A DNA stretch of 62,412 bases, the filler included, from Stramenopiles sp. TOSAG23-6 (lineage: Eukaryota), in assembly GCA_900128565.1 (NCBI GenBank). It is 18 parts of 18 records of this genome, joined end to end, with 100 filler letters (N's around TTAATTAATTAA, not from the genome) between each part and the next. Parts side by side here need not be neighbours in the genome. Positions count along the whole stretch, not along the records: positions 20,887 to 24,261 come from LT637530.1; 17 more parts are not named here. The stretch is one strand, 5' to 3'. Below the pieces are notes generated by a model that saw nothing but the letters and a program-made list of their open reading frames with translations, did no database searches and was not told the DNA's origin. Position numbers and translations under genes: made by a program. Below are positions 3,385-58,952 of the stretch, in pieces; position 1 is the stretch's first letter; each line of letters begins with the position of its first letter.

Positions 3385-3484
3385 NNNNNNNNNNNNNNNN
3401 NNNNNNNNNNNNNNNNNNNNNNNNNNNNTTAATTAATTAANNNNNNNNNNNNNNNNNNNNNNNNNNNNNNNNNNNNNNNNNNNN
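3385..3484. other. Artificial contig spacer N44-TTAATTAATTAA-N44 (first of 17)
   Basis: Identical 100-nt spacers, with stops in all six frames, start at 3385, 6867, 10349, 13830, 17311, 20787, 24262, 27735, 31208, 34680, 38152, 41624, 45096, 48562, 52028, 55493 and 58953. Contig lengths never increase (3384 down to 3360 nt). Confidence 0.98.
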
Positions 3485-5755
3485 CAGAAACAAATACGTC
3501 ATAGAGAAAGAGCCGTAGTTCAAATGGAAAAAGAATTTACTCGGGATGAACGAGAAGCTAGGATGAAAAAAATGTTTGAAATCGCCGACACAGACAATAG
3601 TGGAACTCTTGATAAAGATGAACTTCGAATTTGTCTTCAAAATGCAGGTTTTGGTTTTTCAAAAGCTGAAATAGAGTTTATGGTAGTAGAATCCGATGCA
3701 GATGGCGATGGGGGTGTTGACTTCAACGAGTTTATACCACTTTGTTATGAAATGATGATAGAAAATCTCGCAAAGTCTCTTCCAGATGAAGAAGCTGTGA
3801 AGGCAGAACAAGATGCGTTTAAAAAACAACAACAAGCTGAATGGAAAGCAAATCCAGGAATGCCACTACTACATGGTACACTAGTAGGTCATTGGGAAGT
3901 TATGAGTGATGATAACGGAAATTTATATTATTACCATAGACGATCTCAACAAAGTGTTTGGGATGCTCCAGCTGAAATTTTACAACACGCAGCAAAATTA
4001 GCAAAACGAAATAAAAAAGTTGAAAGACGAACTATATTCGGGGAAGCTGGAAAACTGCGAAAGAAGAAACTAGCCATCGCTGCAGCAAAAGCTGCAGGTA
4101 GAGCCATTGAAGAAAACTTGGGAGAAAAAATAGCACCATCGGTTGCAGCTCAATTAGCATCATTTTCCGCAAAGAAATGGGCATTACGGGCTGCGGTGAA
4201 ATCATCACAGGCGCAATTAGTACTGAATGAACTACACAAAAAACGGCGACAAAAAGAGAAAGAAATGAAAGCACAACAAGAAAAAAAAGAAATAAGCGAT
4301 AGACTTGCCGCAGAAACTCCGAGAGAAGTGCGTGAAGCGCGAGAAATTGAGCGATTAAAAAAAGAAGAACATGATAAGTTTTACCGAAATCGGAAAATGG
4401 TTGAATTAGAAAAGGAGTTATTAGATATATTGAAACACACTAGTTATCCTGCGTCAGAATCAGCTCCTGCAATGGCTCTAGGATGTGGTAAAGGTGCACA
4501 AGAGCCAAAAATACTGGTAGAACTCATGAAACAACTAGTACGTCGTGCTGAAAATAAAGCATATTTTAATAGGACTAATACAGTCTTAGAGTTTGACGCG
4601 GTGAAGAATTGTTTTCAACAAGCGCTTTGGACCTCATGTGAGCGTGGATGGGAGGATACTGTTGCAATATGTGTCAAAGTGGCAAGTGATCCGAGGGAGT
4701 TAGTAAGCCTTGGGAAAAAAAATAATACAGGTGAAACACCACTAGCATTGTCATGTCGACATTTTCGTTTCGGTAATGTAAATACTCTAATGTCTGGAAG
4801 TATAACTCTCTCAAAGCCATGTTTTTCTCGAGGTCGATCTGCGTTACATTGGGCATGTGATGCAGAAGCCAGTAGACTACCATTAAATAAAATGACCCAA
4901 CATGAATCAAAGGAGCAATACAAAAAACGTAAGTTACAAAGGGAAAATGGTGTTCTTGCTTTGGTTAATATCTTAATAGATAATGGTGCAATGCTTGAAC
5001 CACTAGATGACGGTTGTCGGACACCTCTCCATTTAGCAGCGCAGAGAGAAGATTCACGCATTACAAGAGCTCTACTCAATGCTAAAAGTACTCGGAAAGG
5101 CGGAGATAAAAAATATCGCTCAGATGCACAAGCACTTAGAGGAGAAACACCCTTGCACGAGGCTGCAAAGTATGGTCGTGTGGAAAATATTAAATTACTA
5201 CTTGATGCAGGTGCAATTGTAAATTCGCCAACCTTTGGTCGAGAAGATACAGCTGCACATTGGGCTGCTGGTGCAGGACAAACCGAAGCACTCAGAGTTC
5301 TTTTGGATGCAAAAACTCCCGTACATATTCATGATCGATGCGGTAGAGCGCCAATTCATATTGCTGCTGCGAAAGGGCATACGTCGACAATAACTTTGCT
5401 ACTTGAACGTGGAGCTTCTTTAAATGCTCCTGACGGTGGTGGACTGAGTCCTCTACATTATGCTGTAAAAGCTGGACACTTGGATGCAACTATATTAATC
5501 ATAGAAAGTGGTGGCGACCAACATGTCAAGACTCGATCAGGTATGAATTTATTACATCTTGCATCAATGAGAGGGTACTTATTATTAGCACAGAAATTGT
5601 TAGAAAAAGGAGTGGATGCTGAGGAACCAGACAATCGTGGAAGAACACCTGTACAACTTGCAGAAAATCACGGTAAAACGAAAGTGTGTGGGTTCTTTCA
5701 TACTCCACTTGCAAAGAATCTCGCGGCAAGGAACCAACTCGAGAGAATAAATTAA
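3485..5755 (+). CDS. EF-hand + WW + ankyrin-repeat protein (5'-partial)
   Basis: EF-hand loops DTDNSGTLDKDEL and DADGDGGVDFNEF; WW domain (HWEVMSDDNGNLYYYHRRSQQSVWDAP); multiple ankyrin repeats (GETPLHEAA, GRAPIHIAA, GLSPLHYAV). Confidence 0.9.
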   Translation, partial: QKQIRHRERAVVQMEKEFTRDEREARMKKMFEIADTDNSGTLDKDELRICLQNAGFGFSKAEIEFMVVESDADGDGGVDFNEFIPLCYEMMIENLAKSLPDEEAVKAEQDAFKKQQQAEWKANPGMPLLHGTLVGHWEVMSDDNGNLYYYHRRSQQSVWDAPAEILQHAAKLAKRNKKVERRTIFGEAGKLRKKKLAIAAAKAAGRAIEENLGEKIAPSVAAQLASFSAKKWALRAAVKSSQAQLVLNELHKKRRQKEKEMKAQQEKKEISDRLAAETPREVREAREIERLKKEEHDKFYRNRKMVELEKELLDILKHTSYPASESAPAMALGCGKGAQEPKILVELMKQLVRRAENKAYFNRTNTVLEFDAVKNCFQQALWTSCERGWEDTVAICVKVASDPRELVSLGKKNNTGETPLALSCRHFRFGNVNTLMSGSITLSKPCFSRGRSALHWACDAEASRLPLNKMTQHESKEQYKKRKLQRENGVLALVNILIDNGAMLEPLDDGCRTPLHLAAQREDSRITRALLNAKSTRKGGDKKYRSDAQALRGETPLHEAAKYGRVENIKLLLDAGAIVNSPTFGREDTAAHWAAGAGQTEALRVLLDAKTPVHIHDRCGRAPIHIAAAKGHTSTITLLLERGASLNAPDGGGLSPLHYAVKAGHLDATILIIESGGDQHVKTRSGMNLLHLASMRGYLLLAQKLLEKGVDAEEPDNRGRTPVQLAENHGKTKVCGFFHTPLAKNLAARNQLERIN

Positions 5756-6817: not shown

Positions 6818-7040
6818 ATGTATGATGAAAAAATATTTCAAAAAAAAAAACCTAAATTTGTTAGGTNNNNNNNNNNNNNNNNNNNNNNNNNNNNNNNNNN
6901 NNNNNNNNNNTTAATTAATTAANNNNNNNNNNNNNNNNNNNNNNNNNNNNNNNNNNNNNNNNNNNNTTAATTTTTTTTTTCGTACGAAATTTTGTACCTA
7001 AAAATTTTTTTTTTTTTTGAATTATTTTTCCAAAATAAAT

Positions 7041-18414: not shown

Positions 18415-18677
18415 TGAGGAAAAGGTAGTAGTATTAAATAATTTTATAGTATAATAATTCTCGTTCATTTTTACCTGTTTCTTACACTTACCGTGTACAA
18501 GTCATCTAATAATTCCTCACAAATAATAAATTGACTTTATATATCATGCCCCCGTTATTTAGTTACTGACATTTCGACATTTCGGTTTACATGAGGATGT
18601 TCGAAGTTTTTACTCTACTTCAGAACGAAGGCTGAATAAATACCACCACCCTCTAAAAGAAACAACCGGCGCTTACA

Positions 18678-20090
18678 ATGCACTGTACCACCCATTTTTC
18701 AGCGATTGGTCTGGTTGCCTTGGTCGTCTTCGTGGTGACCAATGGTGCAGTTGAGGACTGGTACGTTGACAATGGGTTCCCAGCCATTGAAGGGTTGCAT
18801 TTCCCACGTGGGGATGCCATTGCTCATATTGATATCTTAATTGATGATACAGTGTACATTCTTGAATTTTTCCCGAAGAACATGCAGAACACATCTGCAC
18901 GAATCGAACGTGCGACTGAATTCGTTGACAGATATATGGTTGAATTGATAGATAACGATTTGGAGTTCCAGGGCATCAAAGACAGGGAGGGTCAGTTCCA
19001 CGAGATGGAATTGCCCGAAATGAAGATGGAAAGGGACAAAAAAGCCGAACTGGTAGATCTGTTGGCCGATCAAATTTTACAGGAAACAAACGGTCATGCC
19101 CAATCGTACGGAAATGGCCCCATTGCAATTAAGAAAAAATGGAACCACGGGGAAGATTTGATATACCATCGCGGGGCGGTCACGATTGCGCCAAGTTTGG
19201 AGAGATTCGGCGAGTGGGAAGAATATGGAGTAGAAGTAATGTCCGCATTATTGTGCTCAAATAAACCAGAATCTCCGGTGTTTGATGTTGGCGCGAACCA
19301 AGGGTTGATTACCCTTGCGTTGCAAGATTTAAATCCTTTTCTTGAATATCACGCTTTTGAGCCGCAGCGGCACTTGCATGGCGTTATCGTCGCAAACGCT
19401 TTACTGCGTTCCCCTGCTAGGATCTTTTCGCACAACGTTGCGGTTGGGGATAAACGTGAAATTTTTACAATCCCTAAAATAGAGAGGCTTAAAAAGGGCT
19501 CATTTGCCGCTTTCGGCCTTGACCAGGACCAAAACACAGAGTTGTTAAGGGATCTAGGGTCCGAGAAGGTCCAAAGCATTCGCTTGTCTAGTTTTGTATT
19601 TCCTCCTGACCCCTCGACAACATTGGCCCTGAAATGCCCTCAACTTATCAAAATTGACGTAGAAGGGTTCGAAGACCGCGTGATCATTGGGGCAGAAGAA
19701 ATAATAAAACGCTGTCCTAGCCCCCCAGCATTATACTTCGAAAGCCATAAAGGCCGGAACGTCTCAGAGACAATGCAGTTAGTTACGGGGACTTTAAAAT
19801 ATCATCGCTGTTTCCACCACATTTATTCCTACTTTCGAGAGGACAACTTTCATAAGAACGAGAAAGATTTTAAAACGTTCGCTCCTAATTCAGACGCGTC
19901 ATCGAATCTTTTGTGCATATACCAAGAAGGTTGGCCGGACTGTGCCAACAATATCTCTCGGATTGAGGCCGCAATCTTAAAACGCGAGCTGGTACAGGTC
20001 ACGAACCAGACCATGAACAATGCCTCTGTACCAATTTGCAATTTAACACCAATGGAGGCCAACGACGACACTCGCGCGTGGTGTGCGTGA
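18678..20090 (+). CDS. FkbM-family (Methyltransf_21) SAM-dependent methyltransferase with N-terminal signal/anchor
   Basis: Motifs VFDVGANQG, AFEPQ, NVAVG and LIKIDVEGFE; hydrophobic N-terminus; intronless. Confidence 0.9.
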   Translation: MHCTTHFSAIGLVALVVFVVTNGAVEDWYVDNGFPAIEGLHFPRGDAIAHIDILIDDTVYILEFFPKNMQNTSARIERATEFVDRYMVELIDNDLEFQGIKDREGQFHEMELPEMKMERDKKAELVDLLADQILQETNGHAQSYGNGPIAIKKKWNHGEDLIYHRGAVTIAPSLERFGEWEEYGVEVMSALLCSNKPESPVFDVGANQGLITLALQDLNPFLEYHAFEPQRHLHGVIVANALLRSPARIFSHNVAVGDKREIFTIPKIERLKKGSFAAFGLDQDQNTELLRDLGSEKVQSIRLSSFVFPPDPSTTLALKCPQLIKIDVEGFEDRVIIGAEEIIKRCPSPPALYFESHKGRNVSETMQLVTGTLKYHRCFHHIYSYFREDNFHKNEKDFKTFAPNSDASSNLLCIYQEGWPDCANNISRIEAAILKRELVQVTNQTMNNASVPICNLTPMEANDDTRAWCA

Positions 20091-20267
20091 AGCTAAGAAT
20101 TACTACTACATAGATGAAAAAAAAAAAATTATATAATATCTCAAAAAACAATAACATAGTTAGGGTTAGGGGTACGAAGAAATTGTCCACACTGAAAAAT
20201 TCAATTATTTATTTTAATACAAAATGAGAGTCTTCAAACATACTATAAAAACAAGAAAATTGGCTGT

Positions 20268-20326
20268 TATTTAAGTAATTAAATTTAGCTTCGTCGTACC
20301 CTAATCCTAACTTGGTTCTGTAATTT
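20268..20326 (-). repeat. Right arm of the 59-bp inverted repeat
   Basis: Reverse complement of 18356-18414 (57/59 identical). Confidence 0.85.
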
Positions 20327-20945
20327 CGTCTCATTGATGGTTGTCAATCATCATTTTTTTTTTATAGTGGAGTCCATGAACTATCCGGAGCGATATCTGA
20401 ATTGGCATTGCTTGCAGATGAACCGTAATCAACTTCCTCATCCGATATCTCACTCAGAGATAAATCAATCCTTGTACCATCTTCCAAGCAGCGGCTTAAT
20501 TGTTGTTGAGGCCAATCAATTGGAGTCTTGACCAGAACGCGGGGAGGATCTACAATAGAAGGAGATACTGTTCTTGAACTGACACCTTCTTCATATAACA
20601 GCCAATTATTCGTTTTTTATAAGTGTGTGTATGATAGTCAAATAATTACACAAAATTAAAATAATATGGCTTACTATTATTCAATATACAATAAAACACG
20701 CCCCAACTTACTCTACTTGGCTGGTTTCCCCTCCGTGTTATAAACAGGCAGAACGTACCCGCAGTCCCCCCTAGTTCCAGCTTTCGNNNNNNNNNNNNNN
20801 NNNNNNNNNNNNNNNNNNNNNNNNNNNNNNTTAATTAATTAANNNNNNNNNNNNNNNNNNNNNNNNNNNNNNNNNNNNNNNNNNNNAAATTTTGTACCTA
20901 ACAAATTTTTTTAGATTTTTTTTGAAATATTTTTCCAAAATCCAT

Positions 20946-23391
20946 TGGTACAAACTCAAATGATCTTCATTCAGGTGGGAGCAGCATCTGTGGAGGTGGT
21001 AGAAATAGTATAGGACAAATTATTAGTCCTTCACAAGCACAAGCGTATTTTGTTTTGCCCCATTCAGAAAGAACTGCATGTATGTTTTATTTTTTTTTTA
21101 TTTTTAAATTTTAAATTTGAAATTGAATTTTTTTTTTTTTTTTTTTTTTGAAACTAAAAAAAAAAATTTTGAAATATTTTTCCAAAATACATCAGAAAGT
21201 ATGAGTCGATCGTTTGCAGTGTCTATCCCTCATAGTTCAATAACAAGCACAACACGACGAAGTTTATATGGGTCATCATTTACTAATGTACATTTTGATC
21301 AAGAATTTATTATTATTATTTTTACAAAAAAAAAAATTCATATGAAATTTCGTACCTAACAAAAAAATTGAAAAATTGAAAAATATTTTTTTTCACAAAA
21401 CATGAATCCTCATTAAATTTTCCATCAATAATGTCTCAATCATTCGGTCATGAATTTTCTCTATCTCGGTATAATTCAACAATGTCACAAAATATTTCTA
21501 ATTCATTTAACTCTAAATCAAATATTGAATCAAGATTTGAATCAAGATTTAATTCTGTTAATTCTAAATCAAATATTGAATCAAGATTTGAATCAAGATT
21601 TGAATCAAGATTTAATTCTGCTGAATGCTCTAATCGATCAAGATCAAGTCATCACAGTGCTGCAGCTATCAAAAATGAAGAAAAAGTACAAAGAAGTAAA
21701 AAAAAAAAATTACTACCATTGTACGTTGTACAAAGAAAAATAATTTCAAACAATTTTTTTTTTTTTTTTTTACATTTTTTTTTTCGTACGAAATGTTATA
21801 CCTAAGAAATTTCAGTTTTTTTTTTCATAATATTTTCACAAAATTACATACGATCAGGAGCTCAAGAACGAATTGATTGGATTAATGCAGTTGAAGCAGC
21901 ATCAAATAGAAGAGAAACAGAAAAAAAATTATCATTTACAAAATGTGATACATTTGAAAACGAAAACCCTAACTTTACAAAATATATTGACAAAGAAGAA
22001 GAACAAAATTCTTCTACCAAGTATGATACCATTGATTCATTGAACCCTAACCCTAACCCTAACCCTAGTAAAAACAATCAAAACAATCAAAACAATCCGA
22101 CACATGACATAACAGAACAACTTTTACAATTAGCTAAATTAGATCCTTTAGAAATTTTGACACGAAATGAAAAAAAATTAATTTGGTCCAATCGAATTTC
22201 GTATAGAGGTTTGATTTGGACAACACCATCTTTATTTCATAAATTGATACGTTCAATTGATTGGATGAATGAAAATATGTACGTTTATTTTTTCTTCATT
22301 ATTGTAAAAAAATTTTTTTGTAAAAAAATTTTTTTTTTTTGTAATTTTTTTTTTTTTTTAAATTCGTAGTACATTTTCATACCTAACAAAATTGTACATT
22401 TTATTTTGGAATATTGTCTCACAAAACATTGTTAATGAAATGATGAAAGAGGTACCACCTATAGAGTACTGGTTACCCGGTTCTGGCTCTGTATCTGCAT
22501 TAGTACAATCTATTGATAAGCAATATGAGACATCAAATACAACACATTCAAACCCTAACCCTAGATACGATATAAACCCTAACCCTAGATACGATATTTT
22601 ACCAAAATATTTTCCTGTCGCTCCAATAGAAATAATAACACTTTTAGGACCTACTGTTACCCACAAAAGATTTCGTGCATATGCATTACAATGTGTCCAT
22701 CGGGTATGTTTTTTTTTATTTGGGTATGTTTTTTTTTATTTACCCTAACCCTAATAATTTAATTTTTTTTTTTTGAATTATGAAAATTTTATTAATAATT
22801 TTTTTTTATTGAAATAAATTTTTCACAATACATTTATTATGCACAACTGAAGATTTCGTGCTTTATTTACCTCAATTAGTCCAATGCTTAAAAAGTGAAA
22901 TTCCATTTGACATTAAAATTGAAACAACTAACCCTAACCCTAATGAGACGAAAAAACATGATAAAACTTTACATACAAATATTTGTAGTAAAAGTAAAAA
23001 AGTGTTTGTTCAAGATATTAAACACAAAGATGTACATACATGCAATATTGAATGTGATACAGGATTTGATTCATCGACTTCGTATGATACTGTAGTTGAA
23101 GAAGATACTACGTATTTTTTATCATCGTAACAAAAAACAACTTTTTTTTTTTTTTTTTTTTTTTTTTTGTAAATTTTGTACCTAACAAAAAAAATAAAAA
23201 CAAATTTTTGAAATATTTTTTAACAATGCATTAGACCGTTACGTTGGAGACTTTGGTCACCATTGGCTAATTATCTTTGGAAGTATGCAATAGCTAATGA
23301 AACATCCGTTGGGCTTCCTTTATATTGGGCTCTTCAAGTAGAAGAACATGTTTGTGATCATTGAAAAATTTGTACCTAACAAAAACAATTG

Positions 23392-23459
<68 letters not shown>

Positions 23460-24152
23460 ATATATTTGTACCTAACAAAACAATGTTATACTTTTGAATT
23501 ATTATCCAAAGTATATGGTGCTCAACATCCTCTTTTACATTCATTACTTACACGAATGCGGGAAACAATTTTACTAATTCAAACCCAAGAAAAAGTTTGT
23601 ACGTTTTGTGTATTTTTTTTTCAATTTTTTTTTCATACGAAATTTTGTACCTAACGATTTTTTACAAAAAAAAAAAAAAACATATTTTTTTACAATATAT
23701 GGGGCGAATCAGGTTTTTTTGCTACAATTAATCGGAAAATACAATTTGGACAAACCTGTTCTGATGTTTTGTCTTCATGTATTGATGTACATTTAGCTAT
23801 TGCTGTGGGTAAGGTCAAAAAATTAGGTAATAGTGGTCGGAAATGGCGAAATAGATATGTAGTCCTGGTACGTTTTTCAAAAAATGTGATTTTTTTTTTT
23901 TTTTAAATTTTTTTTCGTACCAAAATTTGTACCTAACAAAAAAAATTTTTAAAAAATATATTTTTTCACAATACATTTGAAAGGTCGACTTCAATATTAT
24001 ATATCAGAAACAGCAACAATGCTACAAAGAGACATGCCTTTTGATACTTTTGTCCATTATGAAAATGCTTTACAATTCTTAAATGTAGTACAAATTAATG
24101 GATCAAATTTTTATCCATTCAAAATTATTTTTAAAACAAATGATGATGACAT
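20946..24152 (+). CDS. Phosphoinositide 3-/4-kinase family protein with PH-like domains (internal fragment, 10 exons)
   Basis: Spliced frame gives ERIDWINAVE (PH C-helix), the PIK helical domain (EKKLIWSNR, RSIDW, FRAYALQCV, LYLPQLVQCLKSE, LYWALQVE), a PH motif GKVKKLG..KWRNRYVVL and the kinase N-lobe IIFKTNDDD. Confidence 0.85.
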
Positions 24153-24227
24153 GTATGTTTTTTTTTTTACAAAAAAATCGAATTTTTTTTTTTTTTTTTT
24201 TGTAAAAAAATTTTTTACCTAAAAAAA

Positions 24228-24261
<34 letters not shown>

Positions 24262-31141: not shown

Positions 31142-31314
31142 GTATGTTTTATTTTTTTTTTTTTACAAAAAAATCGATTTTTTTTTCATACGAAATTTTG
31201 TACCTAANNNNNNNNNNNNNNNNNNNNNNNNNNNNNNNNNNNNNNNNNNNNTTAATTAATTAANNNNNNNNNNNNNNNNNNNNNNNNNNNNNNNNNNNNN
31301 NNNNNNNCAATATT

Positions 31315-31347
<33 letters not shown>

Positions 31348-31352
31348 GGGGA

Positions 31353-31407
<55 letters not shown>

Positions 31408-31422
31408 TTTTGCAATACCTAC

Positions 31423-34400
31423 ACATTCCCTTAATAGCTCACACGCATCTGCAGATAAACAAGAAGGAGGTATCGGAGGCGCGACTTTTTCCGATGCAAT
31501 ATGAAACATTGCAGTGATTGGATTTTCAAATTTCTTTTCATGCCATGGATGTATTTTGGAAAAATATTTCAAATTATTTTTTGTTAGGTACAAACTTTTT
31601 ATAAAAAAAACATTCATACAAAAAAAAAATAAAAAAACATACATTCTTTCCCGTTGCCATTTCAATTACAGTGCATGTATTGTGAAAAAAAAAATGTATG
31701 AAAAAAAAACGTTAGGTATGAAATATATTACAAAAACAAAAATTGCAAAAAAAAATTGGAAAGAAAAAAACCTACATGTAATGTAGAAAAANTATTTTTT
31801 TTTNTAAAATTCGTTAGGTACAAAATTTCGTACGAAAAGCAAATTTAAAATTGAAAAAAAAAGAAACCTACATCCAACACTCCAAATATCAGCTTTAGGC
31901 CAATCAACATGCACGTCAATTTCATGATTAAGATGTTTAAATACTTTCATTCCAGCAGTTGGAGATCTTGGACCTGGATTTATTTGCTGTTTTAAAGAGG
32001 CCGAACCCATCCGAATGACCTCTGGAGCCATCCATAATGGTGTCCCTAAAGGAAATTCAATTTGACCTGGTAAACCAAAACTTTCATTTTTACCAATTTC
32101 GAATTTATTTTTGAAACCAAAATTTTCATTTTGATTTTTTGATGTATTTTTTACATGACTGATAGAATGATCATTTTTGTAATGTATTGAAGAATTTTTA
32201 CGGAAACTTGAATATTTCCTTCGTTTTGGTGTCAATTCTTTTAAAGATTTACTTGCCTGTAGTATACGAAGAATATTAATTTTTTTTTGTTAGGTATGAA
32301 ATTTTTACACGAAAAAAATAAAAAAAAATAAATTTAAATTTAAATTTAAATTTAAAAAAAAAAATGGAATACAAAACATACACCAAAATCAGCAAGCTTT
32401 ATGATACCTCTATTACTAATTAATATATTAGCACCTTTTACATCTCGATGTGCTATACCATGATTATGTAAATATTGCAAACCTTTAATGATTTGTCTTG
32501 TGTAGCATTTTAATGCCTTTTCTGGCAAACCTGTAGGAAATTTTTTCAGTAAATCATGAACAGAGCCTCCTGGTAAATATTCCATAAAAATACGCAACGC
32601 CCATCCACAGGTAAGAGAACCATGAGTCATTGGGCTTGGCGTCCGAGTCCAATCTAAACCCTTTCGTGGAATTGATGTNTTGNGAANATATATATATANA
32701 NTTTNTNTTGGTAAATAAAACTCGTTTGGTACATGATGTACTACAAAAATAAACAATACGTTGAAAAAATATATATATAGGAGAATACACCTACATGGAC
32801 TTCTAATACGTTGTAATTGTGACGGCATTACTCCTCCTGGTAAAGGTTGTCGCTCTGTAGCAAAATAGTGCACAATATTCTCATTGGATAAAGCACGCAT
32901 TAATGAAATTTCATCTTGAAGAGTTACCAATTCGCCAGGTCTTGCTAAAGCGGCATCTAGGGATGTGACTTCTATCGGAGGTAACTCAACTTCTTTCATA
33001 GCCATAACTTGTCCATTATCGAGATTTGTTACAACAAAGACTCTACCATATTGACCTTGACCAATACATTTGCCGCGTCTCCAACGGAAAGGTGCTGGTT
33101 GAACCCATGACTTTTCATGTGGACTCAAATGCCGTTTCGGTGGTGTGATGACGCGAAAATTATTATCTTCTTTCAGAATTTCTGTACTCATTAAACCTTC
33201 TGTTGAATCAATATCTTCACTATCATCAGACACGACAACTTTACGAAAAAAATTTGAAATTAATTTACGTTTCATTGTCTTTCTTCTCCATCGAGGTGTT
33301 GTCCATAAAACTGATAATTCTTTAAGATCATCTTGAGTAGATAAATCTATTTGTTCAACAACTGCACTTTGTACTAAAAATTTATCTGGTTTAGCATTTA
33401 TGTCTTCTCTGTCTAGTAATTGTCTAACTTCTTGTTTTCGTATAATAAATTGAACATCTGTCCATTTACCTGGTTTTATAAGACCCATGTATTTTGGAAA
33501 AATATTTTGAAAAAAAAAAATTGAAAAATTTGTTAGGTACAAAATTTCGTACGAAAAAAAAATTTGAATTTCAAATTTAAAAAAAAAAAAANATACATTG
33601 CTGGTCTAACTAAATATCGATCTGGTTGTGTTGTTTTTATCTTAAATGCCACGGATTCTAAGGGTAGTGAATTTTCTAATAAAAGCTGACCAAGTGCACT
33701 TTGTGCTGTGTCTAAAGCAAAATCTATTTCATCTCTTGGTGTGCATCGTAATCTGTACTTTGGGAAAATATTTTAAAAAAAAAAGTGTTTGTTTAAGCAA
33801 AATNTTTTTTTTTTTTAATATATATATATAGCAAAACAATCAAAAATAAATGATGAAATAAAAACATACGCTTTTCTATGACGCATATCGATGACAGCAC
33901 TATTTGTTTTCTTTGAACGAATTCCATGGCGATTATTTTCACGTAATTTTTTATTACTTTGTGTACATATTTTNTGAAAAAATATTTTTTTTTTTTTTTN
34001 TAAAATTTGTTATTTTTGTTAGGTACGAAATTTCGTATGAAAAAAAAATTGAAAAAAATTGGAAAAAATTGATAAAAAATTGAAAAAAAAAACATACCAC
34101 TTTGTTTTTGAATAGTCATTTGTAAAGAAGCAACAGAACTGTTACCAGGAAATGAAGGTAATGACTTACCAGGTGAAAAAATATTTGTGTTTTTCGTGTA
34201 TGGAGATCCAATAGGCGTACCATAAGGAGTTAAAGGTTGAATTTTAAATTTATTTGGCATTGGACAATTTTGTGAAAAATATTTCATTTTTTTTAGGGTT
34301 AGTGGTTTAGTGGGTTAGGGTTAGGATTTGGAAAAAAAAAATGAAATTCATTAGGGTTAGGGTTAACACATACGATCCTCTTGGCGTACTATAAGGACTA

Positions 34401-34679
34401 ATACTATCATTCATATTTTCAATTTGAATGTGACGAATTTTCTTACGACTTTTCATATCTAATAAAGACACATTTTCTAGTACTTTTTTGTTAGGGTTAG
34501 GGCTAGGGTTAGGGTCTGTTGTATTCGGTGTAGGATTTGTTGTATTTTTTATTCTTGAAAGAAGTTTTTCAATTCCTTTACGAAACTTTTTTTTTGTTTT
34601 TGTATTTTTAAGATTCATTACATTATCAACATTATCAACATTATCAACATTATCAACATTATCAACATTTTTATCATCA
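31423..34679 (-). CDS. MSP(VAP)-domain STE11/MEKK-like Ser/Thr kinase (partial, multi-exon), copy 1
   Basis: MSP signature VAFKIKTTQPDRYLVRPAMGLIKPG; kinase motifs GQGQYGRV, MAMKEV, HRDVKGAN, DFGAS, GTPLWMAPE and DIWSVGCTVIEMATG after splicing. Confidence 0.9.
31675..31871 (-). other. Two abutting GT-AT intron units (31871-31776, 31775-31675) with no exon between them
   Basis: GGA T|GTAGGT..TACCTAAC..TTACAT|GTAGGT..TACCTAAC..AATACAT|GC ACT restores DIWSVGCTVIEM. Confidence 0.82.
33487..33596 (-). other. Non-canonical intron GT-AT within the MSP domain
   Basis: GCA AT|GTATGT...AAAATACAT|G GGT restores YLVRPAMGLI (compare VAP YCVRPNSGII). Confidence 0.85.
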
Positions 34680-45195: not shown

Positions 45196-46494
45196 ATGGT
45201 CGTTAATGTCTTTCCAAATATTGTNAAAAAATATTTTTTTTTTTTGGTTAAAAAAAACAAAAAAAACGTTAGGTACAACATTTGGTACGAAAAAATGTAG
45301 GTAAAACATTCAATTTTGAAAATGTACAAGTCCCATCTCATCGGCTAAGATGGCACCTTGCCCCATATATTCTTTTACACCGCTCAGACATTCCCAAAGA
45401 AATTGAACATATTGTAAAAAAATATTTCAAAAATTAAAATTTTGTTAGGTACAAAATTTTATACGAAAAAAAAAATATTTCAAAAAAAAAATTAAAATTT
45501 TCTTAGGTACAAAATTTCATACGAAAAAAACAATTCGAAATTGAAAAGAAAACATACACACCTTCTATTTGATGTTGTTGTAAAATGTTTGATAGCCGAT
45601 ATTCAAGAATTGCACATTTTCCATTTTTCTCAAATAATTTACCTTTTGAGGGCGTGTAATTTGCTTTTGTACAATGAATGCTTCCTAGTCCTGGATTTCT
45701 ATTNATATTGTTTTTTCTTTTGTGTGGTGTTGTGACACTGGTGTCTGTAGTTGCGAGAGTGTGAGAAAGTACAAAAAAATCGTTAGGTACAAAGTTTCGT
45801 ACGAAAAATAAAAACATAAATTGAAAAAAAAAATAAATTGCGAAATTCATGATGAAAGTGTACTTTTGTTAGGAAATGGATTTTGAAACTTGCGATTAAA
45901 ATTAGATGTGTTTTTAATTTTCCCCACATTATTGTTATGAGAAGTATTCACATAATTTCCAATAAAAAACTTGCCACTGTTGAACTCTTCATCGGGTACT
46001 TGTCGAACGACTTCGGTTTCCCAATTTCCAACACCTAGAGTTTCACCTTCTTTCATTAGTTGAAATTTGAAACGAGTGACGGCCACACTTTTCCCATTCA
46101 TATTCCGCAGTTCAGCACGATTCTTTGAATTCAAAATAAGAACACCGTCCATGTATGTCTTATGCTTCTTTTTAGAATATTTACAGTACAATACCTCATA
46201 GTATTTCTTGACAACTGGAGCACTAGTAATCTTGTTTATTGTACCATTTGATTTAGTCATACTCGGCGGAACAAATTTGCTTCGCTTTCTACTCACACGT
46301 TTTAATATTGTCTTGGNTTCAGAAANAATTGTAGTGTGAGTGGTTTTCGTGTTGGTACTTCTATTTTCTTTCGAGCAAGCTGTAGAAGATACATTTTTAG
46401 NTGCTTGTACAACATTTGGATTTGAAANTCTTGGTGCCTGAAATGTACTTCGTGATCTACCAAAGCGGCGTCTTTTTAGACCAGATGGATTCAT
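45196..46494 (-). CDS. RAD54B: RAD54B-like SNF2 DNA translocase, N-terminal part (exons 46494-45864, 45744-45558, 45406-45328, 45215-45196)
   Basis: N-terminal KKKHKTYMDGVLIL motif; splicing restores LQQHQIEGVQFLWEC and SNF2 motif I GAILADEMGLGKTL. Exon phases 1/2/0 are mutually consistent. Confidence 0.8.
45216..45327 (-). other. Non-canonical intron GT-TT inside the SNF2 Walker A motif
   Basis: CTT|GTACAT...TACCTAAC...ACAATATTT|GGA AAG restores DEMGL|GKT. Confidence 0.88.
45407..45557 (-). other. Non-canonical intron GT-GT (equivalently GT-AT if slid 2 nt)
   Basis: GGT GT|GTATGT...ACAATATGT|T CAA restores HQIEGVQFLW. Confidence 0.8.
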
Positions 46495-46835
46495 TGATTT
46501 ATACTAATATATATTGTGCTCATTCATTCGATCACTTTAAGAATCGGATCTGATTTCATCACATGACATTGTATCAACATTGTAAATAGATAAAGCAAAT
46601 GACATTGTAGAGAGAGAGAATCAGAGAGTTTTGAATCAAATCTGACTGACAAAAAAATGAGATTTCGTGTTGTAGCGCTGAGAGTTGACTTGCAATGCCA
46701 TCAATATCGGCCACGTTCATCATACTACGAAGAAACCATGCACGCGTGTNTTNCNTNCAGTAGAATGATGTGTAATGTATTATGCACAANTTTNCCCGTT
46801 ATACGCATATAATTAATATAAATTAAGCGTATGAG

Positions 46836-48561
46836 ATGATAGACCTACCAGAGATTAATCAAGTTTTGCATGTCGGTAGTACTTCGTGCTTGACAGGGAC
46901 GACATGTGCGGCTATGAATGATTTTGGTAATTTCCTTNTACAGTTTGAAAAAGACGTACAACTTCATACTTTTAGCAATTTTAAAGCTCTTTGGCGGGCA
47001 TCAAAATCTCTACAAGAAATCCACAATTGTTGTCCATCAAATCATTTTTCTTCTCCCAAAGACTATACTCAAGAAATCTTTGGAGCTGCGCTGCGTTTGA
47101 GTCGATCTACGTCACTAACGAGAAAACCAAGCGTTCAGTGGCAGGTGGGAATAGTTTATATACTTTTTGTCGTGTATAAGACGCAACGTCATACACCCAA
47201 GATACCAATACGAGTGACGCCAGGTATAATGAAGTCANTGTTATCGTTATATAAGGTTTTCCACTCAGGGATTTGTAAAGAAGCGACGGAAGATGTAAAA
47301 TATATTTTTAGAACACTTCTCCAAGATAATGCGTTTTCCTTATCTGCTTTTATTGGTGCTATGTTACCTTGTAATGCCCCTTGTGATAATGATTTCCCTG
47401 GAAGCGTTGGTGATACTGGTATAGATTATGAAGCATTTCGTTTTAGTGATGAAATCAAGNAATTGAAGTCTTCACGTACTAATAGAGGTTTTACAGCTGA
47501 TTCGTATAAAAATAGCATGTCTCTTCTGGGAATTGTTGATATTGAAACTATCAATGCTGCTACATCGGAATATACAAATGCACTGATACAATTAGAAAAG
47601 GCAAAAAATNCTGTNCATGTATCCAAACAACGCCGCAGTCCGTTTTTGCGTCGTTCTTCGTCAAAAGTTAGGAAAAAAGATAATTTACAATTTAGTAAAT
47701 CGAAGTTGATATTTACATCTATAAATGATTGCTTGATGAANAATGGGCTTTTAGTCAATAATTCTGAAGAAAANATGTGTAATATACCTAGTGTGAATCA
47801 TCTACATAGTGTTGATAGTCACATTGTATCGACTAATAATGAGGATGATAATTCGTGTTTCAAATCTACAAAGTTTGATGTTTCCTCTACATCACGAAAT
47901 CTAATGGGAAAAGGTCTGAAGAAAAGTAAACCTAAATTGTCTAAGCGTGAGAAGCGACAACTCCGTCTTTATGGAAATATTTCCGATGAAAGTTTCTCTG
48001 GTGAGGAGGATATTATAGAAAATAATATGAATGACGATATTATAGAAGATAATATGAATGAGGATAGTATAGAAAATAATATGAATGAGGATATTATAGA
48101 AAATAATATGAATGAGGATATTATAGAAAATAATATGAATGAGGATAGTATAGAAAATAATATGAATGAGGATATTATAGACAATAATATGAATGAGGAT
48201 GGTGGTTTGGAATATAGTTCTGATGATGACGAAGCTCTAACCGAAAGTTTATTTTCAACAGTAAAAAATACAAAATGTATTCAAAATTCGTACTCAAACA
48301 TTTCTGACCCTAACCCTAACCCTAACTCACATGATGATTTAGGATCGGATAATGGTTCAATGACTAGAGCAGATGATGTCAACATAACGGGAAATGATAC
48401 TCTACAAATTCATCATTCGTTGGACGTTACACGTAAACGGAATCATATGACTGCATTCACAGAAAGTGTAAAAAAACAGAGTAAAACAAAGCGTCACAAA
48501 AGTAAGGATAAAAAAATAGAAAAGAAAAGTAAATCAANTAGTTCTTCTACATCTAAAAAGC
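46836..48561 (+). CDS. SNAPC1: snRNA-activating protein complex subunit 1 (SNAP43)-like (3'-partial)
   Basis: FSNFKALWR..LQEIH and QVGIVYILFVVYKTQ...KIPIRVT resemble the SNAPc_SNAP43 domain, followed by a disordered tail. Confidence 0.65.
48007..48200 (+). repeat. 27-nt coding tandem repeat (EDIIENNMN, about 7 units)
   Basis: Repeated gaggatattatagaaaataatatgaat units. Confidence 0.9.
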
Positions 48562-53168: not shown

Positions 53169-55244
53169 CTAATTAAAATCAGAAATATTAAATGTATTTA
53201 TGAGATACTCTAGCATTGCTTGTGCATCTTCATTACCAGCTTTAGCCGATTTAGTAAACCATTTTTCAGCTTCTTTTCTATCTACAGCAACACCATCACC
53301 AAAAAAATAACAATTACCAATCTTATATTGTGCGTCACTATTACCAGCATTAGCCGATTTCATACACCACTTGAAACCTTCTTCGTAGTCTTGAGCAACA
53401 CCATCACCACGTAGATAGCATTCACCAAGACTATTTTGTCCATGACTATTACCTGCATTTGCAGATTTAGCATACCACTTGAAAGCTTCTGTTTTGTCTA
53501 CAGCAACACCATGACCACTAAAATAACAATAACCAAGATTATTTTGTCCCATACTATGACCAGCATTAGCGGATTTAGTATACCACTTGAAAGCTTCTTT
53601 TTTATCTTCAGCAACACCATCACCATTTTCATAGCAATAACCAAGATTGTTTTGTGCATCACAATTATCTGAATTAGCAGATTTAGTATACCACTTGAAA
53701 GCTTCTTTTTTATCTACAGCAACACCATCACCAAAAAAATAACAATTACCAAGACTATTTTGTGCATTACTCTTACCGGAATTAGCTGATTTAGTATACC
53801 ATTTGAAAGCTTCTTTTTTATCTTCAGCAACACCATTACCATAAAAATAACAATTACCAAGACAATTTTGTCCAATGCTATTACCTGCAGTTGCAGATTT
53901 CGTATACCACTTGAAAGCTTCTTCTTTGTCTTCAGCAACACCAACACCATTTTCATAACATAAACCAAGACTATTTTGTCCATTGCTATTACCTAAATTA
54001 GCAGATTTTGTATACCACTTGAAAGCTTCTTTTTTGTCTTGAGCAACACCATGACCAATATCATAACAACAACCAATTTCACTTTGAGCATAACTATAAT
54101 CACTATTATCCATAAACATCTTAAATGTTTTTTTATCATCATGTTTATAACCATTCCAACCACCATATGTACATACTGCAATAGCTGTTGGAAAACCAGC
54201 AATAGCAGCAGATTCAATCATTATTTGTCCATTCTCTTGATCAATTTTCTGAAAGTCCTCGCCCCAGTATTTGGCATAACCAAGTTCAAATAAATTCTGT
54301 GCACCTTTATTTTCAATCTTTTGACGTTTCACTGCACTATTAGATGATGATGAACTCGATTTTCGTTTTTTTTCACTACTACTACTATTTGATACTTCAG
54401 GTGGTACATTCTCATCAACGGTATCCTTAAATGATTCCAATGAAGCAGATAGTATTTTCTCCTCTTCTTGAAATGTTTTGGTCAACTTTTTTAAACCATT
54501 TAAACGATCAGTTTGTTTCTTTTGAACTTCAACAATTTTTTTATATTCATTTTCAGCATCTACAATAGCACTCTTTATCTTTTCCATATTTTGTTTTGCA
54601 GCCTCAAGTTGTTTTTCTGCTTCTGGTAACTTTGTCTTTGCATTTTCAACTGCATCTTCTGCTATCTTGACTTTATTTATTTTTTCTTCTTCTTCATCTT
54701 TAATTTTACCTTCTAAAACAACAACAGATTCTTCATTGACTTTTCTCATTTGTTTTATTTTTGAAATCTGTAAAAGCCGTTTATCATTTTTCTCTTTACA
54801 TACAATAGATAATGTATCCAATGCAGATTCAACATCAGTTGTAAAAGTATTAGTATTTGTAAAAAATACTTTCAACATATTCAGACGTGACTTTTCGACA
54901 CAAGCATCAGACTGTGTGACCAACTCTATCATCTGTCTAATCACTGCAATTATGCCTTTTGGAGAGGTTGGTTGGTGACATTGTCGCCACAATAGATCTA
55001 TATTATTGTTATGTTTCGCTTGCTGTTCTCTCCATTCAATACACTGGGATTTACAATTGAAGTTCGTCACAAGGTTTGTATTAGGCAACACTTTGTTTGT
55101 TAAAGGTGAAGTATTTTTTGTACGAAAGTGTTGCATGATTGCCTCTCGTTCATATGTGCGACCATCTGCAGCAACGACAGGATCTTTGTATATATCGTGT
55201 GTAATTGGACACATTAAGTTATCAGGCACATCATTGTTTGTCAT
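53169..55244 (-). CDS. U-box + coiled-coil + Sel1-repeat protein
   Basis: U-box (CPITHDIYKDPVVAADGRTYEREAI..SPLTN) and about eight 36-aa Sel1 repeats (AQNSLGNCYFFGDGVAVDKKEAFKWYTKSA). Confidence 0.92.
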   Translation of the reverse strand: MTNNDVPDNLMCPITHDIYKDPVVAADGRTYEREAIMQHFRTKNTSPLTNKVLPNTNLVTNFNCKSQCIEWREQQAKHNNNIDLLWRQCHQPTSPKGIIAVIRQMIELVTQSDACVEKSRLNMLKVFFTNTNTFTTDVESALDTLSIVCKEKNDKRLLQISKIKQMRKVNEESVVVLEGKIKDEEEEKINKVKIAEDAVENAKTKLPEAEKQLEAAKQNMEKIKSAIVDAENEYKKIVEVQKKQTDRLNGLKKLTKTFQEEEKILSASLESFKDTVDENVPPEVSNSSSSEKKRKSSSSSSNSAVKRQKIENKGAQNLFELGYAKYWGEDFQKIDQENGQIMIESAAIAGFPTAIAVCTYGGWNGYKHDDKKTFKMFMDNSDYSYAQSEIGCCYDIGHGVAQDKKEAFKWYTKSANLGNSNGQNSLGLCYENGVGVAEDKEEAFKWYTKSATAGNSIGQNCLGNCYFYGNGVAEDKKEAFKWYTKSANSGKSNAQNSLGNCYFFGDGVAVDKKEAFKWYTKSANSDNCDAQNNLGYCYENGDGVAEDKKEAFKWYTKSANAGHSMGQNNLGYCYFSGHGVAVDKTEAFKWYAKSANAGNSHGQNSLGECYLRGDGVAQDYEEGFKWCMKSANAGNSDAQYKIGNCYFFGDGVAVDRKEAEKWFTKSAKAGNEDAQAMLEYLINTFNISDFN

Positions 55245-55592
55245 TATCTCAAAATTACTTGAATATTATTTTAGAGAAAGAGACACTATTATAGATTAGA
55301 CTTTTGACTTGTAGTAGGTACGAAGAAGTACTTTTCAGTTTTGACACGTGCTCGTCGAAAAAATATTATTACCCGGTTCACTCAATTTTTGTAATATTTT
55401 TATGACGTCGTCACTGGTCAAGTCTCTCAACAAGGTTATAGAATTGGGAAGGAATGACACGAAATTTGAAAAAAAAAAAATAATTCACCTACNNNNNNNN
55501 NNNNNNNNNNNNNNNNNNNNNNNNNNNNNNNNNNNNTTAATTAATTAANNNNNNNNNNNNNNNNNNNNNNNNNNNNNNNNNNNNNNNNNNNN

Positions 55593-58500
55593 AGCAATTC
55601 ATCATTTTTAAGAGCAATGCGAGTATTCGGACTTGAAAAATCATTAAATAGAAGCTGAGTTGTTGTGACATTTGATAATATACCCACAAATGAATAGCTT
55701 GTTGAAGAACTTGAAGTGTTTCGAGTGTAAACCCTATCACCAGTATCAAAAATATTCATTGCTCCGTTCCCTTTAATTGTAATTTTTTTGGCTCCACTAT
55801 TTGCTGCTTCATCCACTCGCAAACCAGTGTTGGAGTCATTTATTGGATTTGTAGGATCTACCACCACATCATTTAGTCCATCGCATGAGTATTTAAATTT
55901 TCCTTCCTCACAGTAATAACCAGCTGGGCATTTTTGTGGTTCAACATTACTACCTGGGCAATACCAAGCAGTTTCAGCATTCTGTAAGGAAGAATCTGGA
56001 TTTGACGAGTCCCAGATGCATGATTTCTTTTGCGTGGGAGTAGGACAGTACCAGCCAGCTGGGCAAGTATTGCTTTTAAAAGAGCCTTCTGGACAAAAAC
56101 TACCTACTATAGTGCATTCTATCTGCTCTGTAGCCGTTGGGCAATAATGACCACTCAGACAAAGGTTTGGCGACATAGTTCCACTGGGGCAGAAATATCC
56201 AATATTGTCATAGTCGGTTATTGGGTTAGACAAATCTACAGGATCATCAATTGGTGCAGAACAAGAATACTTAAATTTGCCCTCTTCACAGTAAAATCCT
56301 TCAGGGCACATCTGAGGATAATCATTTCCACCTGAACAAAGCCAAGCGGTGGTGGAGTTTATCAGAGTCTGATCAACATTATTTGTGTTCCAAACACACG
56401 ACTTCCTTGTTTTTGCTCCTGGGCAATACGAACCTGGTGGACACTTTGTCATATCCTTACTACCACTTGGACAGTAGTACGCTGAGCCATCATAAATTTC
56501 TCCCCGCTTAACTGCATTATCCATTGAATTATATGGATAATCTGACCACACACCAACCATATTCCCAGGGTCTCCAATAGTTGTACACGAGTTTTCATTT
56601 ATTCTAGCAGGATACCATGTACCAGGCGGATCTAGGGTTTCACAGTCAGACTTTGAAGTACGTTCTGGTAATGTTTTTACAGTGGCATCATCAATACATG
56701 TATCGATATCAACATTAATGTTTCCTATCATACATCCTGAAAAAGGATATGCGCATGAATATTGATACTTGCCATCTTTACAATAAAATCCTTCGGGGCA
56801 TCTTTTAAAGTTTTTTGATCCTACAGGGCAAATGTAGGCAGTTCCATCATATACGCCACCACGAGAAATAATTCCATTACTAGCGTCATATAGTGAACCC
56901 GACCAAGTGCCAGTGCTGTTATTAGGCTCACTCTTCGAAATACATTCAGCTTCATTTGATCGTGCAGGATACCATATACCTGAAGGGTTGTTATTAATGC
57001 ATGAAGTCTTATTTGAATGGGGCAAAATATCAACACCATTGCTTGAGATACACGTTGCAACATCAACATTGACATTTCCAACCATACACCCTGAAAATGG
57101 ATATTTACATGAATATTGAAACTTTCCATCTTCACAATAAAAACCAGCAATACATTGTTCTGCGCTTGAAGAGCCTTCGGGGCAGAAATACCCTGTTACA
57201 CGTGCATCCTCAAAAGAGATAGGGTTAGTCAAATCATAATTTGGTGCATCTAGTGATGGATCAGCACAATTATATTTTTTCTTTCCGTCTTCACAGTAGT
57301 AACCAGCTGTACAAAGCTTTGGTGATTTTGTACCTTGAGGGCAATAGAATCCCAAACTATAATCAAGGATTGCTTTATCTGGATCACCAATCGCAGTTAT
57401 AATAGCACTCTCGCCGCTACCCTGGCCTACAACTCCTATAGCAAAAGTTATTTCCTCGCCCACAGAATAGCCCATACCGCGATTTGACGGATTTACTGAA
57501 CATTGGATAATATCCCCATCTTTTGATATCACAACATCAAATTTTGCACCTGATCCACTTTTACTTGAAACCGAGGAAACCGATGTATATGACCCTGGAA
57601 CATAATTTGTTGAAACGCCACTACAAGATACAGAAGCAGCATTTGATTCTGCATTACTACAACTGTACTTAAACTTTCCTTCGCGACAGTAATACCCTTC
57701 AGGACACAATTCAGGGCTAGTACTTCCACCCCCACAGTAAAATTTGTCAATACATTTAGTTTGGACATGACCCTCCTCGCAGTAAAAGCCAATAGGACAT
57801 TCAATGATAATCGGACCTGAAAATTTATTTGTTATTTCATCCCCACTTCCTTCACCACATATCCAAGATTTATCCTGTCCACCTTCTGTTACTTTTCCAG
57901 CAGCAAGTGGGCTACATATCGTTTCACTTATTCCAACTGGACATTTGCCATATATACAACTAACAGCTTTAGTCGACCCCTCACTGCAAAATGTACCTGT
58001 AGGACAAGTTGTACATACATTTTGGCCAATTTCATTGTTATATTTTCCTTGCTCACAACTTCGACATATATCTATACCATGACAAAGGCCCTTCCAACGA
58101 CAACCAGGAGTTTCTTTACACTTGGACATTCCATCTACGTCTTTGTACATATTGATATTACCACAAATTTCATTTTTATCTAGAGCTGTTCCAACACAAG
58201 ACCCGTGAATCCAAATACGAGAAATATTGGGGGTGATATTGTCAGAGTCATGATCCCATTCCCCTTTACAACTATCTATAGTATTATGAGATTTATCTGA
58301 GCATCCTGGCTGAGTCCGCCATTCACAATTGGATACCTCGCAGTCACTCTGAGACGTCAAGTAACCACATTTTTCAGTCCACTTTCCCGTTAAAGCTTCA
58401 CGACAGCCCAACCAGTCACAATCACCTTTACACATTGTTTCCGTTGTTTCCCCTATATCCATAATTTTAATCTTAATTAATCCATTAAAATTATTATTTG

Positions 58501-58952
58501 CATCGCCCGCTTCAAGAATGTCACCTACACTATATCCATCTCCAGTACTACTGACGTTACAAGAGCTAATCTTGCCGCCACTTATAGTGACGTTCACTGT
58601 AGCACTTTTACCAGCACAACCATTGTCATTGAAACTTGATCTACAAATAGTTTGTACAGATAGATACGTACCATCATTCAATTCCTTTGAGTCGCTGAGG
58701 CAAATAATTGAAACAATACCAGAAGGCATTTGTGAACATTGATTAAAATGATACTGCCCAGTTTGACAAATCTGCATTGGAAAAATTGCAGAACTGGTAC
58801 CTATACTGTTTGCAGCTTCTATATTTACTGAGTATTTATCGGCTGTACTGACAGAAATATCATAAATCTCAGAAGAGCCTACTTCGCACAGGGAAGATTC
58901 ATTGTTGTATGCTAAATCACATCCGTTTCCTACTATTGAACTACACGGCATA
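55593..58952 (-). CDS. Very large Cys-rich repeat (GCC2/GCC3-like CPxGxYC) surface-type protein, internal fragment, variant 1
   Basis: Frame open across the whole contig, with many CPxG[FY]YC repeats. Confidence 0.85.

Follow-up and report, generated by a model that had tools for sequence, protein, structure and literature searches.

Nine consecutive GT-AT introns in a putative PI3/4-kinase gene of Stramenopiles sp. TOSAG23-6

Results

Layout of the locus

The DNA analysed in this study (hereafter the window) is a stretch of 62,412 bases from the assembly GCA_900128565.1 of Stramenopiles sp. TOSAG23-6, made up of 18 contigs of 3,360-3,384 bp ordered by size, and all positions are counted along it. 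The contigs are joined by linkers of 100 nucleotides (nt), consisting of N around TTAATTAATTAA (3385-3484, 6867-6966 and so on to 58953-59052), so adjoining pieces are not genomic neighbours. The gene under study, a putative PI3/4-kinase gene, is confined to one contig (LT637530.1, 20887-24261) and is interrupted by nine consecutive introns that begin with GT and end with AT.

All features of this gene lie on the plus strand. The contig starts inside an intron, of which the 3' part is present (20887-20945, with the box TACCTAAC at 20895-20902 and the end ..CCAAAATCCAT, that is, ..CCAT at 20945). Exon a (20946-21079), which is open in one frame only, is followed by intron 1 (21080-21192, GTATGT..ATACAT), exon b (21193-21287) and intron 2 (21288-21403, GTACAT..AAACAT). 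Exon c (21404-21720) is rich in Ser and Asn and contains a 51-nt tandem repeat; it precedes intron 3 (21721-21849, GTACGT..TTACAT) and exon d (21850-22278), in which a putative PIK helical (PI3Ka) domain starts and an in-frame (AACCCT)4 is present. Intron 4 (22279-22429, GTACGT..AAACAT), exon e (22430-22703) and intron 5 (22704-22833, GTATGT..ATACAT) come next. The donor of intron 5 lies within a perfect 20-nt tandem duplication (22702-22741), which presents two identical GTATGT donors 20 nt apart, and the first alone is in phase with the AT acceptor. Exon f (22834-23111) continues the putative PI3Ka domain, with the motif LPQLVQ, and is followed by intron 6 (23112-23231, GTATTT..ATGCAT), exon g (23232-23349), intron 7 (23350-23516, GTTTGT..GTATAT), exon h (23517-23598), intron 8 (23599-23700, GTACGT..ATATAT), exon i (23701-23867), intron 9 (23868-23976, GTACGT..ATACAT) and exon j (23977-24152). 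The contig ends inside a further intron that starts with GTATGT (5' part, GTATGTTT, 24153-24261).

The sizes of the introns are, in order, 113, 116, 129, 151, 130, 120, 167, 102 and 109 nt. The DNA is AT-rich, with a G+C content of 32% in the exons of this gene and 9-18% in the introns. When the introns were cut out, a single stop-free frame was obtained from 20946 to 24152, its roughly 690 codons including neither TAA nor TAG nor TGA, and the remaining two frames were full of stops. Since every exon is open in one frame only, just one in every three positions can serve as acceptor once the phase of the donor is set. The AT end defined by the intron motifs was in phase with the GTAYGT donor in all nine introns (chance 1/3 each, 5e-5). 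The initial annotation had described nine GT-AT introns chaining into one open frame, and this was confirmed by the coordinates, the phases and the stop-free product. As for the features of U2-type introns, the GT donor was found in all nine, and the 3' YAG was replaced by YAT in all nine (CAT in seven and TAT in two).

RNA evidence for two of the junctions

Assembled contigs of three seawater metatranscriptome runs (X1, X2 and X3) containing part of the stretch were used as RNA evidence; such libraries can contain DNA. Record 22 of X3 (223 nt, 0 mismatches) aligned to 23242-23347, 23515-23597 and 23700-23733, spanning exon h and joining exons g, h and i. It skips 167 and 102 nt, which are exactly introns 7 and 8, and removal from RNA is precise for these two of the nine introns. 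Letters shared by the two sides allow the joints to slide by 3 nt at intron 7 and by 1 nt at intron 8. At intron 7 this leaves AT..AT, TG..TA, GT..AT and TT..TG as readings of the ends, and at intron 8 TG..TA and GT..AT; an AG end is not among them. The record therefore rules out the sole GT..AG alternative of intron 7 (23354-23511) and the alternatives of intron 8 (to 23712). The RNA passes over an AG 5 nt upstream of the end of intron 7 (23510-23511) and a CAG 12 nt downstream of the end of intron 8. Most of the joints listed for these runs (20909-20946 to 23613-23631) were cross-matches among copies of the intron repeat, and these were left out. At the junctions of introns 1, 2, 3, 6 and 9 the three runs had no spanning contig, which weighs neither for nor against splicing there.

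The intron 3' modules reached a summed depth of about 3,400-5,000 in two RNA runs, compared with 2-10 for the exons of the gene under study. The partial intron at the contig start (20887-20945) is likewise present in many copies in these runs, where its depth sums to about 3400-3800. This depth indicates that the intron family is present in very high copy in whichever organism carries it there.

Anatomy of the introns

When aligned, the nine introns showed common modules: a 5' end GTAYGTT, a T-rich stretch of variable size, in which T-runs reach 61 nt, then TTCGTACGAAATTTTGTACCTAACAA, an A-rich spacer and, as the 3' end, GAAATATTTTTT-CA(C/A)AA-W-YAT. The 3' box in its compact form is GAAATATTTTT-CA(C/A)AA-YAT, with W sometimes standing before YAT. 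The donor is GTAYGT in six of the nine (the exceptions being GTACAT, GTATTT and GTTTGT), and GT in all nine and in all 16 introns when the second gene described below is included. In 8/9 introns a candidate branch box is present, either (G)TACCTAAC or a sequence close to it, and intron 5 has only TAATAAT; the CTAAC core is 39-50 nt away from the intron end. The whole set of nine introns (1,137 nt) contains 6 AG versus 118 AT dinucleotides, and no AG is present between the branch box and the end in seven introns. In every intron one to four earlier YAT triplets are bypassed after the branch box; one of these sits in a conserved GAAATAT that is exact in six of the nine.

Two further observations were made on the intron sequences. 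Intron 7 has two TTTGTACCTAACAAAA boxes, one of them near the 5' end, with the 61-nt T run between them. The perfect palindrome TACGAAATTTCGTA forms the 14 bases before CCTAAC in some copies, for example at 21341-21354 and next to the boxes at 7974 and 44441 (minus strand), on their upstream side, and the commoner form has one G-T mismatch.

The intron family in other genes

The window carries 13 plus-strand and 36 minus-strand copies of the box TACCTAAC together with the same 3' box, spread over most contigs. Automatic scans for introns across the window were too noisy for counting, and only hand-checked chains were counted. The same behaviour was observed in a second gene, a kinase gene on the minus strand of 31308-34679, in which the cutting of five AT-type and two AG-type introns gave an open frame of about 750 amino acids. 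Its product aligned to the homologue P0001 without gaps through subdomain IX across two AT junctions (E-value 9e-16). One of the two splits the codon for Cys in ..DIWSVGC.. and the other follows ..TGKN; ..ADFG is followed by a junction of the AG type. In the two contigs with a checkable whole exon chain, 14 of the 16 acceptors were thus AT and two were AG. Four more AG-ending candidates were found by phase alone (9653->9505, 9320->9208, 15588->15483 and 30900->31010), one of which is collinear with a calpain profile.

Similarity between introns was assessed by BLAST at E<1e-5, and 141 of 231 pairs passed, 107 of them between contigs. With the low-complexity filter 100 of 231 pairs passed, and ten shuffled sets gave 0-3 pairs unfiltered and 0-1 filtered. 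Judged by these sequence similarities, AT- and AG-ending introns are one family. The 20-nt intron motif gave 0 matches in metagenome contigs, 0 in viral contigs and 1 in a Bacteroidales metagenome-assembled genome, which is probably due to chance.

The contig of the kinase gene is present in four near-identical copies in the window, and those of 45196-48561 and 55593-58952 in two each, the differences being mainly single N positions. A 'twin' intron of the kinase gene (31675-31871, minus strand, and also present in the three duplicate contigs) consists of two complete intron copies placed head to tail without an intervening exon, one of 96 and one of 101 nt and both of the form GTAGGT...ACAT. 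The first intron of the same gene (34265-34373) has telomere-like repeats inside, and its motif-aligned end would be ..ATTG.

The upstream exon ends in AT at 8/14 AT-type introns (P 4.5e-5) and not at the other 6/14. An exon-end AT matches the intron-end AT, and those junctions are therefore ambiguous by 2 nt. The bias could stem from a preference on the donor side, from a mobile element that duplicates 2 bp of its target site, or from pairing of the short ATGTA/TACAT.

Identity of the gene

The label of PI3/4-kinase given in the initial annotation was supported to a lesser degree than it had been stated. The Pfam PI3Ka profile matched exon d (exon 4; E-value 3.1e-6, 27.2 bits with a cut-off of 31, profile positions 2-59) and exon f (exon 6; E-value 0.017, 15 bits, positions 106-124, from exon residue 5). 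Both matches are below the cut-off, and they are collinear along the profile. A PDB search with exon d found the helical domain of p110alpha (E-value 0.04). The catalytic domain (PI3_PI4) is not present in the contig, which ends at 24261. The annotation had also proposed a check with PI3Ka and PH hidden Markov models, and of these PI3Ka gave the two matches described, and no PH family was found at E<=1 among the exons tested. Six of the eight exons tested had no match to a PI3K or PH family. A word search with exon d among longer proteins had no match and a metagenome locus search no relative, and nothing of use came from searching the PDB with exons e, f and g. A HMMER scan with the conserved 63 amino acids of exon d gave one match, to a bacterial coiled-coil protein, which was spurious.

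Discussion

Choice between AT and AG acceptors

In the initial annotation AT was considered the default acceptor, with a nearby AG being ignored when it is at the wrong distance. AT is indeed the majority acceptor (14/16), but AG also works in the same family (2/16, plus the four candidates found by phase alone). The passing over of a nearby AG was borne out by RNA for introns 7 and 8, and it may also apply to introns 1 and 6, the two named in the annotation. At intron 1 the CAG that directly follows (21193-21195) would create TAA, as had been claimed: exon a ends in ..GCA T, and an acceptor after the CAG would give T+AA. Intron 6 had been singled out as the only one with an in-frame AG alternative, which is true for an adjacent AG; with the donor kept, in-frame and stop-free AGs within 45 nt were found for introns 1 (+27), 6 (+3 and +18) and 8 (+12). 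No support was found for distance itself as the cause. From box to end, AT-type introns measure 39-56 nt and AG-type introns 37-45 nt, and as these ranges overlap, distance is not shown to be the reason for ignoring an AG. All 14 AT-type introns end in YAT. The YAT that is used closes the conserved 3' box, and sequence context therefore explains the choice of site at least as well as distance.

Other readings of the intron ends were considered and rejected. An AT-AC reading is possible for introns 1, 2 and 4 only (exon end AT, intron end ACAT), and a TG-TA reading for just 6/9 introns. The use of TAA as a sense codon was dropped, as the spliced frame has no in-frame stop of any kind.

Proposed explanation

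The observation of GT-AT introns in this gene is confirmed as real and far beyond chance; RNA shows two of the nine junctions, and the remaining seven keep to the same strict pattern. These introns are probably substrates of the major (U2-type) spliceosome in a marine eukaryote with AT-rich DNA, in which the normal 3' end is YAT instead of YAG, and would belong to an introner-like family. The major spliceosome is indicated by the GT donor, the yeast-like branch box, the T-tracts, the precise removal from RNA and the AG-ending siblings with the same donor and box. It would act on introns with a yeast-like donor GTAYGT, a T-run and the near-invariant box (G)TACCTAAC. The exon would be joined after the YAT closing the conserved 3' box, with earlier YATs and with AGs a few bases away being bypassed, and the terminal pair would be G(+1)/U(-1) instead of G/G. 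The branch-recognition sequence of the U2 small nuclear RNA (snRNA) may complement UACCUAAC with one bulged A. The introns would be copies of one introner-like family that also fills other genes; as copies of one family, they probably inherited the AT end from the family founder, and this end may be tolerated or preferred by the 3' splice-site recognition of the organism. We infer a spliceosomal mechanism with branching at the adenosine of TACCTAAC, adapted U2AF-like factors and spread by transposition.

Several observations weigh against this explanation. The junction evidence comes from a single RNA contig of one run, and seven of the nine junctions were placed by frame and motif logic only. 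Record 8 of X1 retains intron 4, and 12 nt of intron 5 are included in record 16 of X2; such contigs may reflect inefficient splicing, or simply pre-mRNA or DNA in the library. The bias for AT at the exon end hints at target-site duplication or pairing of the ends and not at pure signal recognition. The kinase intron with its donor at 34373 (34265-34373, minus strand) has no in-phase YAT or YAG, and an Rfam scan of the window gave 0 matches, and hence no snRNA. When the donor is also allowed to move, eight of the nine introns have a frame-keeping GT/GC..AG pair within 45 nt, often through the second GT of GTAYGT.

These pairs would allow the introns to be ordinary GT-AG (or GC-AG) introns, with the AT ends resulting from a wrong pairing of donor and acceptor, and at intron 6 a TAG lies only 3 nt beyond the AT end, where an in-frame acceptor could still be used. 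Intron 2, however, has no such alternative, and the RNA contradicts those of introns 7 (158 nt versus the 167 nt observed) and 8 (114 versus 102). The donor at -28 of intron 4 and the alternatives of intron 5 would delete residues inside the Pfam PI3Ka and PDB matches, and the AT junctions of the kinase gene reconstitute the conserved subdomain IX to the residue. The sites of the AG alternatives are also unrelated and off consensus, while the GT..AT ends rely on one set of conserved motifs in all nine introns, and wrong pairing is very improbable. A U12 origin, that is, a great expansion of the rare GT-AT subtype as in Physarum, is quite unlikely. The U12 branch box is TCCTTAAC, which the box ACCTAAC resembles, and flexible 3' ends are known for U12 introns. 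The donors are nevertheless GTAYGT(T) or GTAYGTTT and not [AG]TATCCTT, the branch box is 39-50 nt from the end versus 9-12 nt in Physarum U12 introns and about 9-15 nt for the U12 type, nine such introns are consecutive, and the AG-ending members share donor and box. A donor without ATCC, together with a box at that distance, does not fit the minor spliceosome.

It is unlikely, if somewhat less so, that these are nonconventional introns derived from transposons, as in euglenids, hemistasiid diplonemids and Amoebophrya, in which paired ends and flanking repeats would define the cut. The introns do form a repeated family, 8/14 AT-type introns have a direct AT|GTA...TAC-AT| repeat that is also a 5-bp inverted repeat ATGTA/TACAT, and 3/7 minimum-energy folds have the opening 4-5 bases paired to those immediately ahead of the final AU. 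According to the available text on Amoebophrya, introners there have direct repeats of 3-5 nt and inverted repeats of 8-20 nt (PMC7789003). Nonconventional introns are described, in the accessible parts of the sources, as lacking a dominant terminal dinucleotide (PMC12621601; PMC7789003), against which the ends here are invariant (GT 16/16, YAT 14/16). The pairing of the ends amounted to at most 3-5 AU-rich bp, and fold z-scores for the seven introns of <=150 nt (-0.50, +0.82, -2.57, -2.71, +1.01, -0.04 and -1.44) gave no consistent structure. The exon AT is missing in 6/14, and the donor and branch box are strong and of the spliceosome type. Excision by end pairing does not fit such uniform termini and minimal pairing. 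Removal at the DNA level, with internal eliminated sequences or intron-less alleles mirrored by the RNA contig, is extremely improbable. The libraries may hold DNA, contigs with and without the intervening sequence were both seen, and short direct repeats (ATG and T) are present at the two observed joints. No repeat of the TA kind, however, marks the boundaries consistently, with introns 5, 6 and 9 lacking one altogether, and the stretches carry splicing signals, namely the GT donor, the branch box and the T-tract. Eliminated sequences of the ciliate type, bounded by TA, were rejected because the boundaries do not fit.

Comparison with known systems

Literature searches for GT-AT introns as a lineage trait, and for the branch motif, gave no such lineage; GT-AT ends appeared only in scattered single cases and in the Physarum U12 subtype. 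AT acceptors are rare and have been described mainly from planktonic tunicates, and the closest precedent for major-spliceosome introns ending in YAT is that of the Fritillariidae larvaceans. In the accessible text of Soo et al. (2026), 3'AT is the commonest acceptor in this group, with a share of 44% in Fritillaria pellucida and of 34% in F. borealis; introns nearly always close with YAY, YAY often stands before the donor, and a U-rich tract is present (PMC13326754). The same text and a second source, as far as available, describe a major spliceosome with diverged U2AF paralogues and suspect introner transposons as the source of the introns (PMC13326754; PMC11282704). The present introns are similar in their YAT ends (14/14 of the AT type; AT in 14/16 overall), U-rich tract and marine plankton host, in the YAY before the donor (5/14) and the exon-end AT, in the major spliceosome proposed here, and in the link to transposons or introners. 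In F. borealis the main classes are AG/AC and AG/AT, with GT/AG at only 5%, by the part of the report that covers this species (PMC13326754). The present introns are unlike these, having GT in 16/16, a strong GTAYGT consensus, the near-invariant TACCTAAC box and a long 3' box. This comparison of classes rests on F. borealis in the text available, and F. pellucida, F. haplostoma and A. sicula may include a GT/AT class. The gene content of the window also looks unlike that of a tunicate, with DUF4116 repeats and a U-box+Sel1 protein whose nearest Atlas clusters are diatom or haptophyte. For two window proteins the nearest Atlas clusters were protist, fungal or plant and not chordate, which is weak evidence, with no taxonomic marker in the window. 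If the contigs derive from a sequenced Fritillariid, the finding would be already known.

Introners occur in Micromonas, Aureococcus, dinoflagellates and many TARA genomes, according to the accessible text of Gozashti et al. (2022, PMC9860276). In the same text, the published families have GT, GC or GA donors and a G+C content of 20.9-83.3%, and no non-AG acceptor class is mentioned in it (PMC9860276). The present family resembles introners in its similarity between introns of different genes, which passes the operational threshold for introners (BLAST E<1e-5), its apparent high copy number, its aquatic host and its own splice signals, and differs in a G+C content (9-18%) below the published range. 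At the intron ends, apart from the 8/14 exon-end AT matches, the inverted repeat was limited to GTA/TAC (3 bp), and neither a clear target-site duplication nor long terminal inverted repeats were seen.

Yeast-type introns have the consensus GTATGT / TACTAAC / YAG, and strong splice signals usually accompany few introns. The introns described here share the GTAYGT donor and the near-invariant TAC(C)TAAC branch box with them, and differ in the YAT acceptor, one extra C in the box, a distance of 39-50 nt from branch to end, and a very high density (11 introns in 3.4 kb). For Physarum, non-canonical U12 GT-AT introns are reported, in the text available, as 17% of the 0.8% of introns that are non-canonical, with the branch box 9-12 nt from the 3' end (10.1101/2020.10.12.336362). 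Those introns have the same terminal dinucleotides, and their donor, branch consensus, branch distance and share differ. Three other systems were considered and dropped: Mirusvirus introns, which are GT-AG; the Acanthoeca TARA introners, with 54-61% G+C in two family rows of the source in its accessible part; and the introns of eupelagonemids or hemistasiids, which are GC-rich and without conserved ends.

Implications

The AG at the intron end is among the most conserved signals of eukaryotic genes. Large-scale breakers of the rule are few (euglenids, some diplonemids, Amoebophrya and Fritillaria), and most of them alter both ends or lose the consensus. Here the donor and branch signals are of textbook strength and the last base alone is changed. 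The introns are probably a case of non-canonical major-spliceosome introns with 3'AT from an introner-like family. The AG-ending siblings in the same family offer a clean contrast for 3' splice-site recognition by U2AF1-like factors and for step-2 proofreading. Gene finders that require AG will mis-annotate nearly every gene of this organism, and the organism can readily be traced in ocean data by its high-copy intron family.

It is possible, and is put forward here tentatively, that an AT-rich marine protist unrelated to tunicates independently re-tuned its major spliceosome to YAT, driven by one introner-like family that carries its own GTAYGT, TACCTAAC and YAT and is present in most genes in thousands of copies. 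If so, it would be a second and cleaner natural experiment on the AG ends of introns, in which only the last base differs.

Other features of the window

Telomere-like CCCTAA/TTAGGG hexamers (33 + 33 in the window) were found both in introns and in exons, where they are in frame and encode Asn-Pro repeats. Sites include 22043-22067, 22550-22597, 22743-22754 and 22932-22943 in the gene under study, 34291-34362 (minus strand) in the kinase gene, and 48308-48325. In exon e they form part of a tandem duplication of 24 nt that is perfect. At 20153-20317 lies an intergenic element, about 165 bp in size, with imperfect 19-nt inverted repeats at its ends that consist of TTAGGG-like units followed by GTACGAAG; from its sequence it looks like a miniature transposon with telomere-like ends.

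Several long intron-less frames with a higher G+C content, about 39-41%, were observed at 18657-20090, 3485-5752, 53172-55265 and 55592-58951, on contigs that are mostly without the intron motif. They encode an FkbM methyltransferase, an EF-hand+WW+ankyrin protein, a U-box+Sel1 protein and a protein of 1,150 amino acids. A BTB+pentapeptide protein was also found, with a EukProt protein as its best homologue (51% identity).

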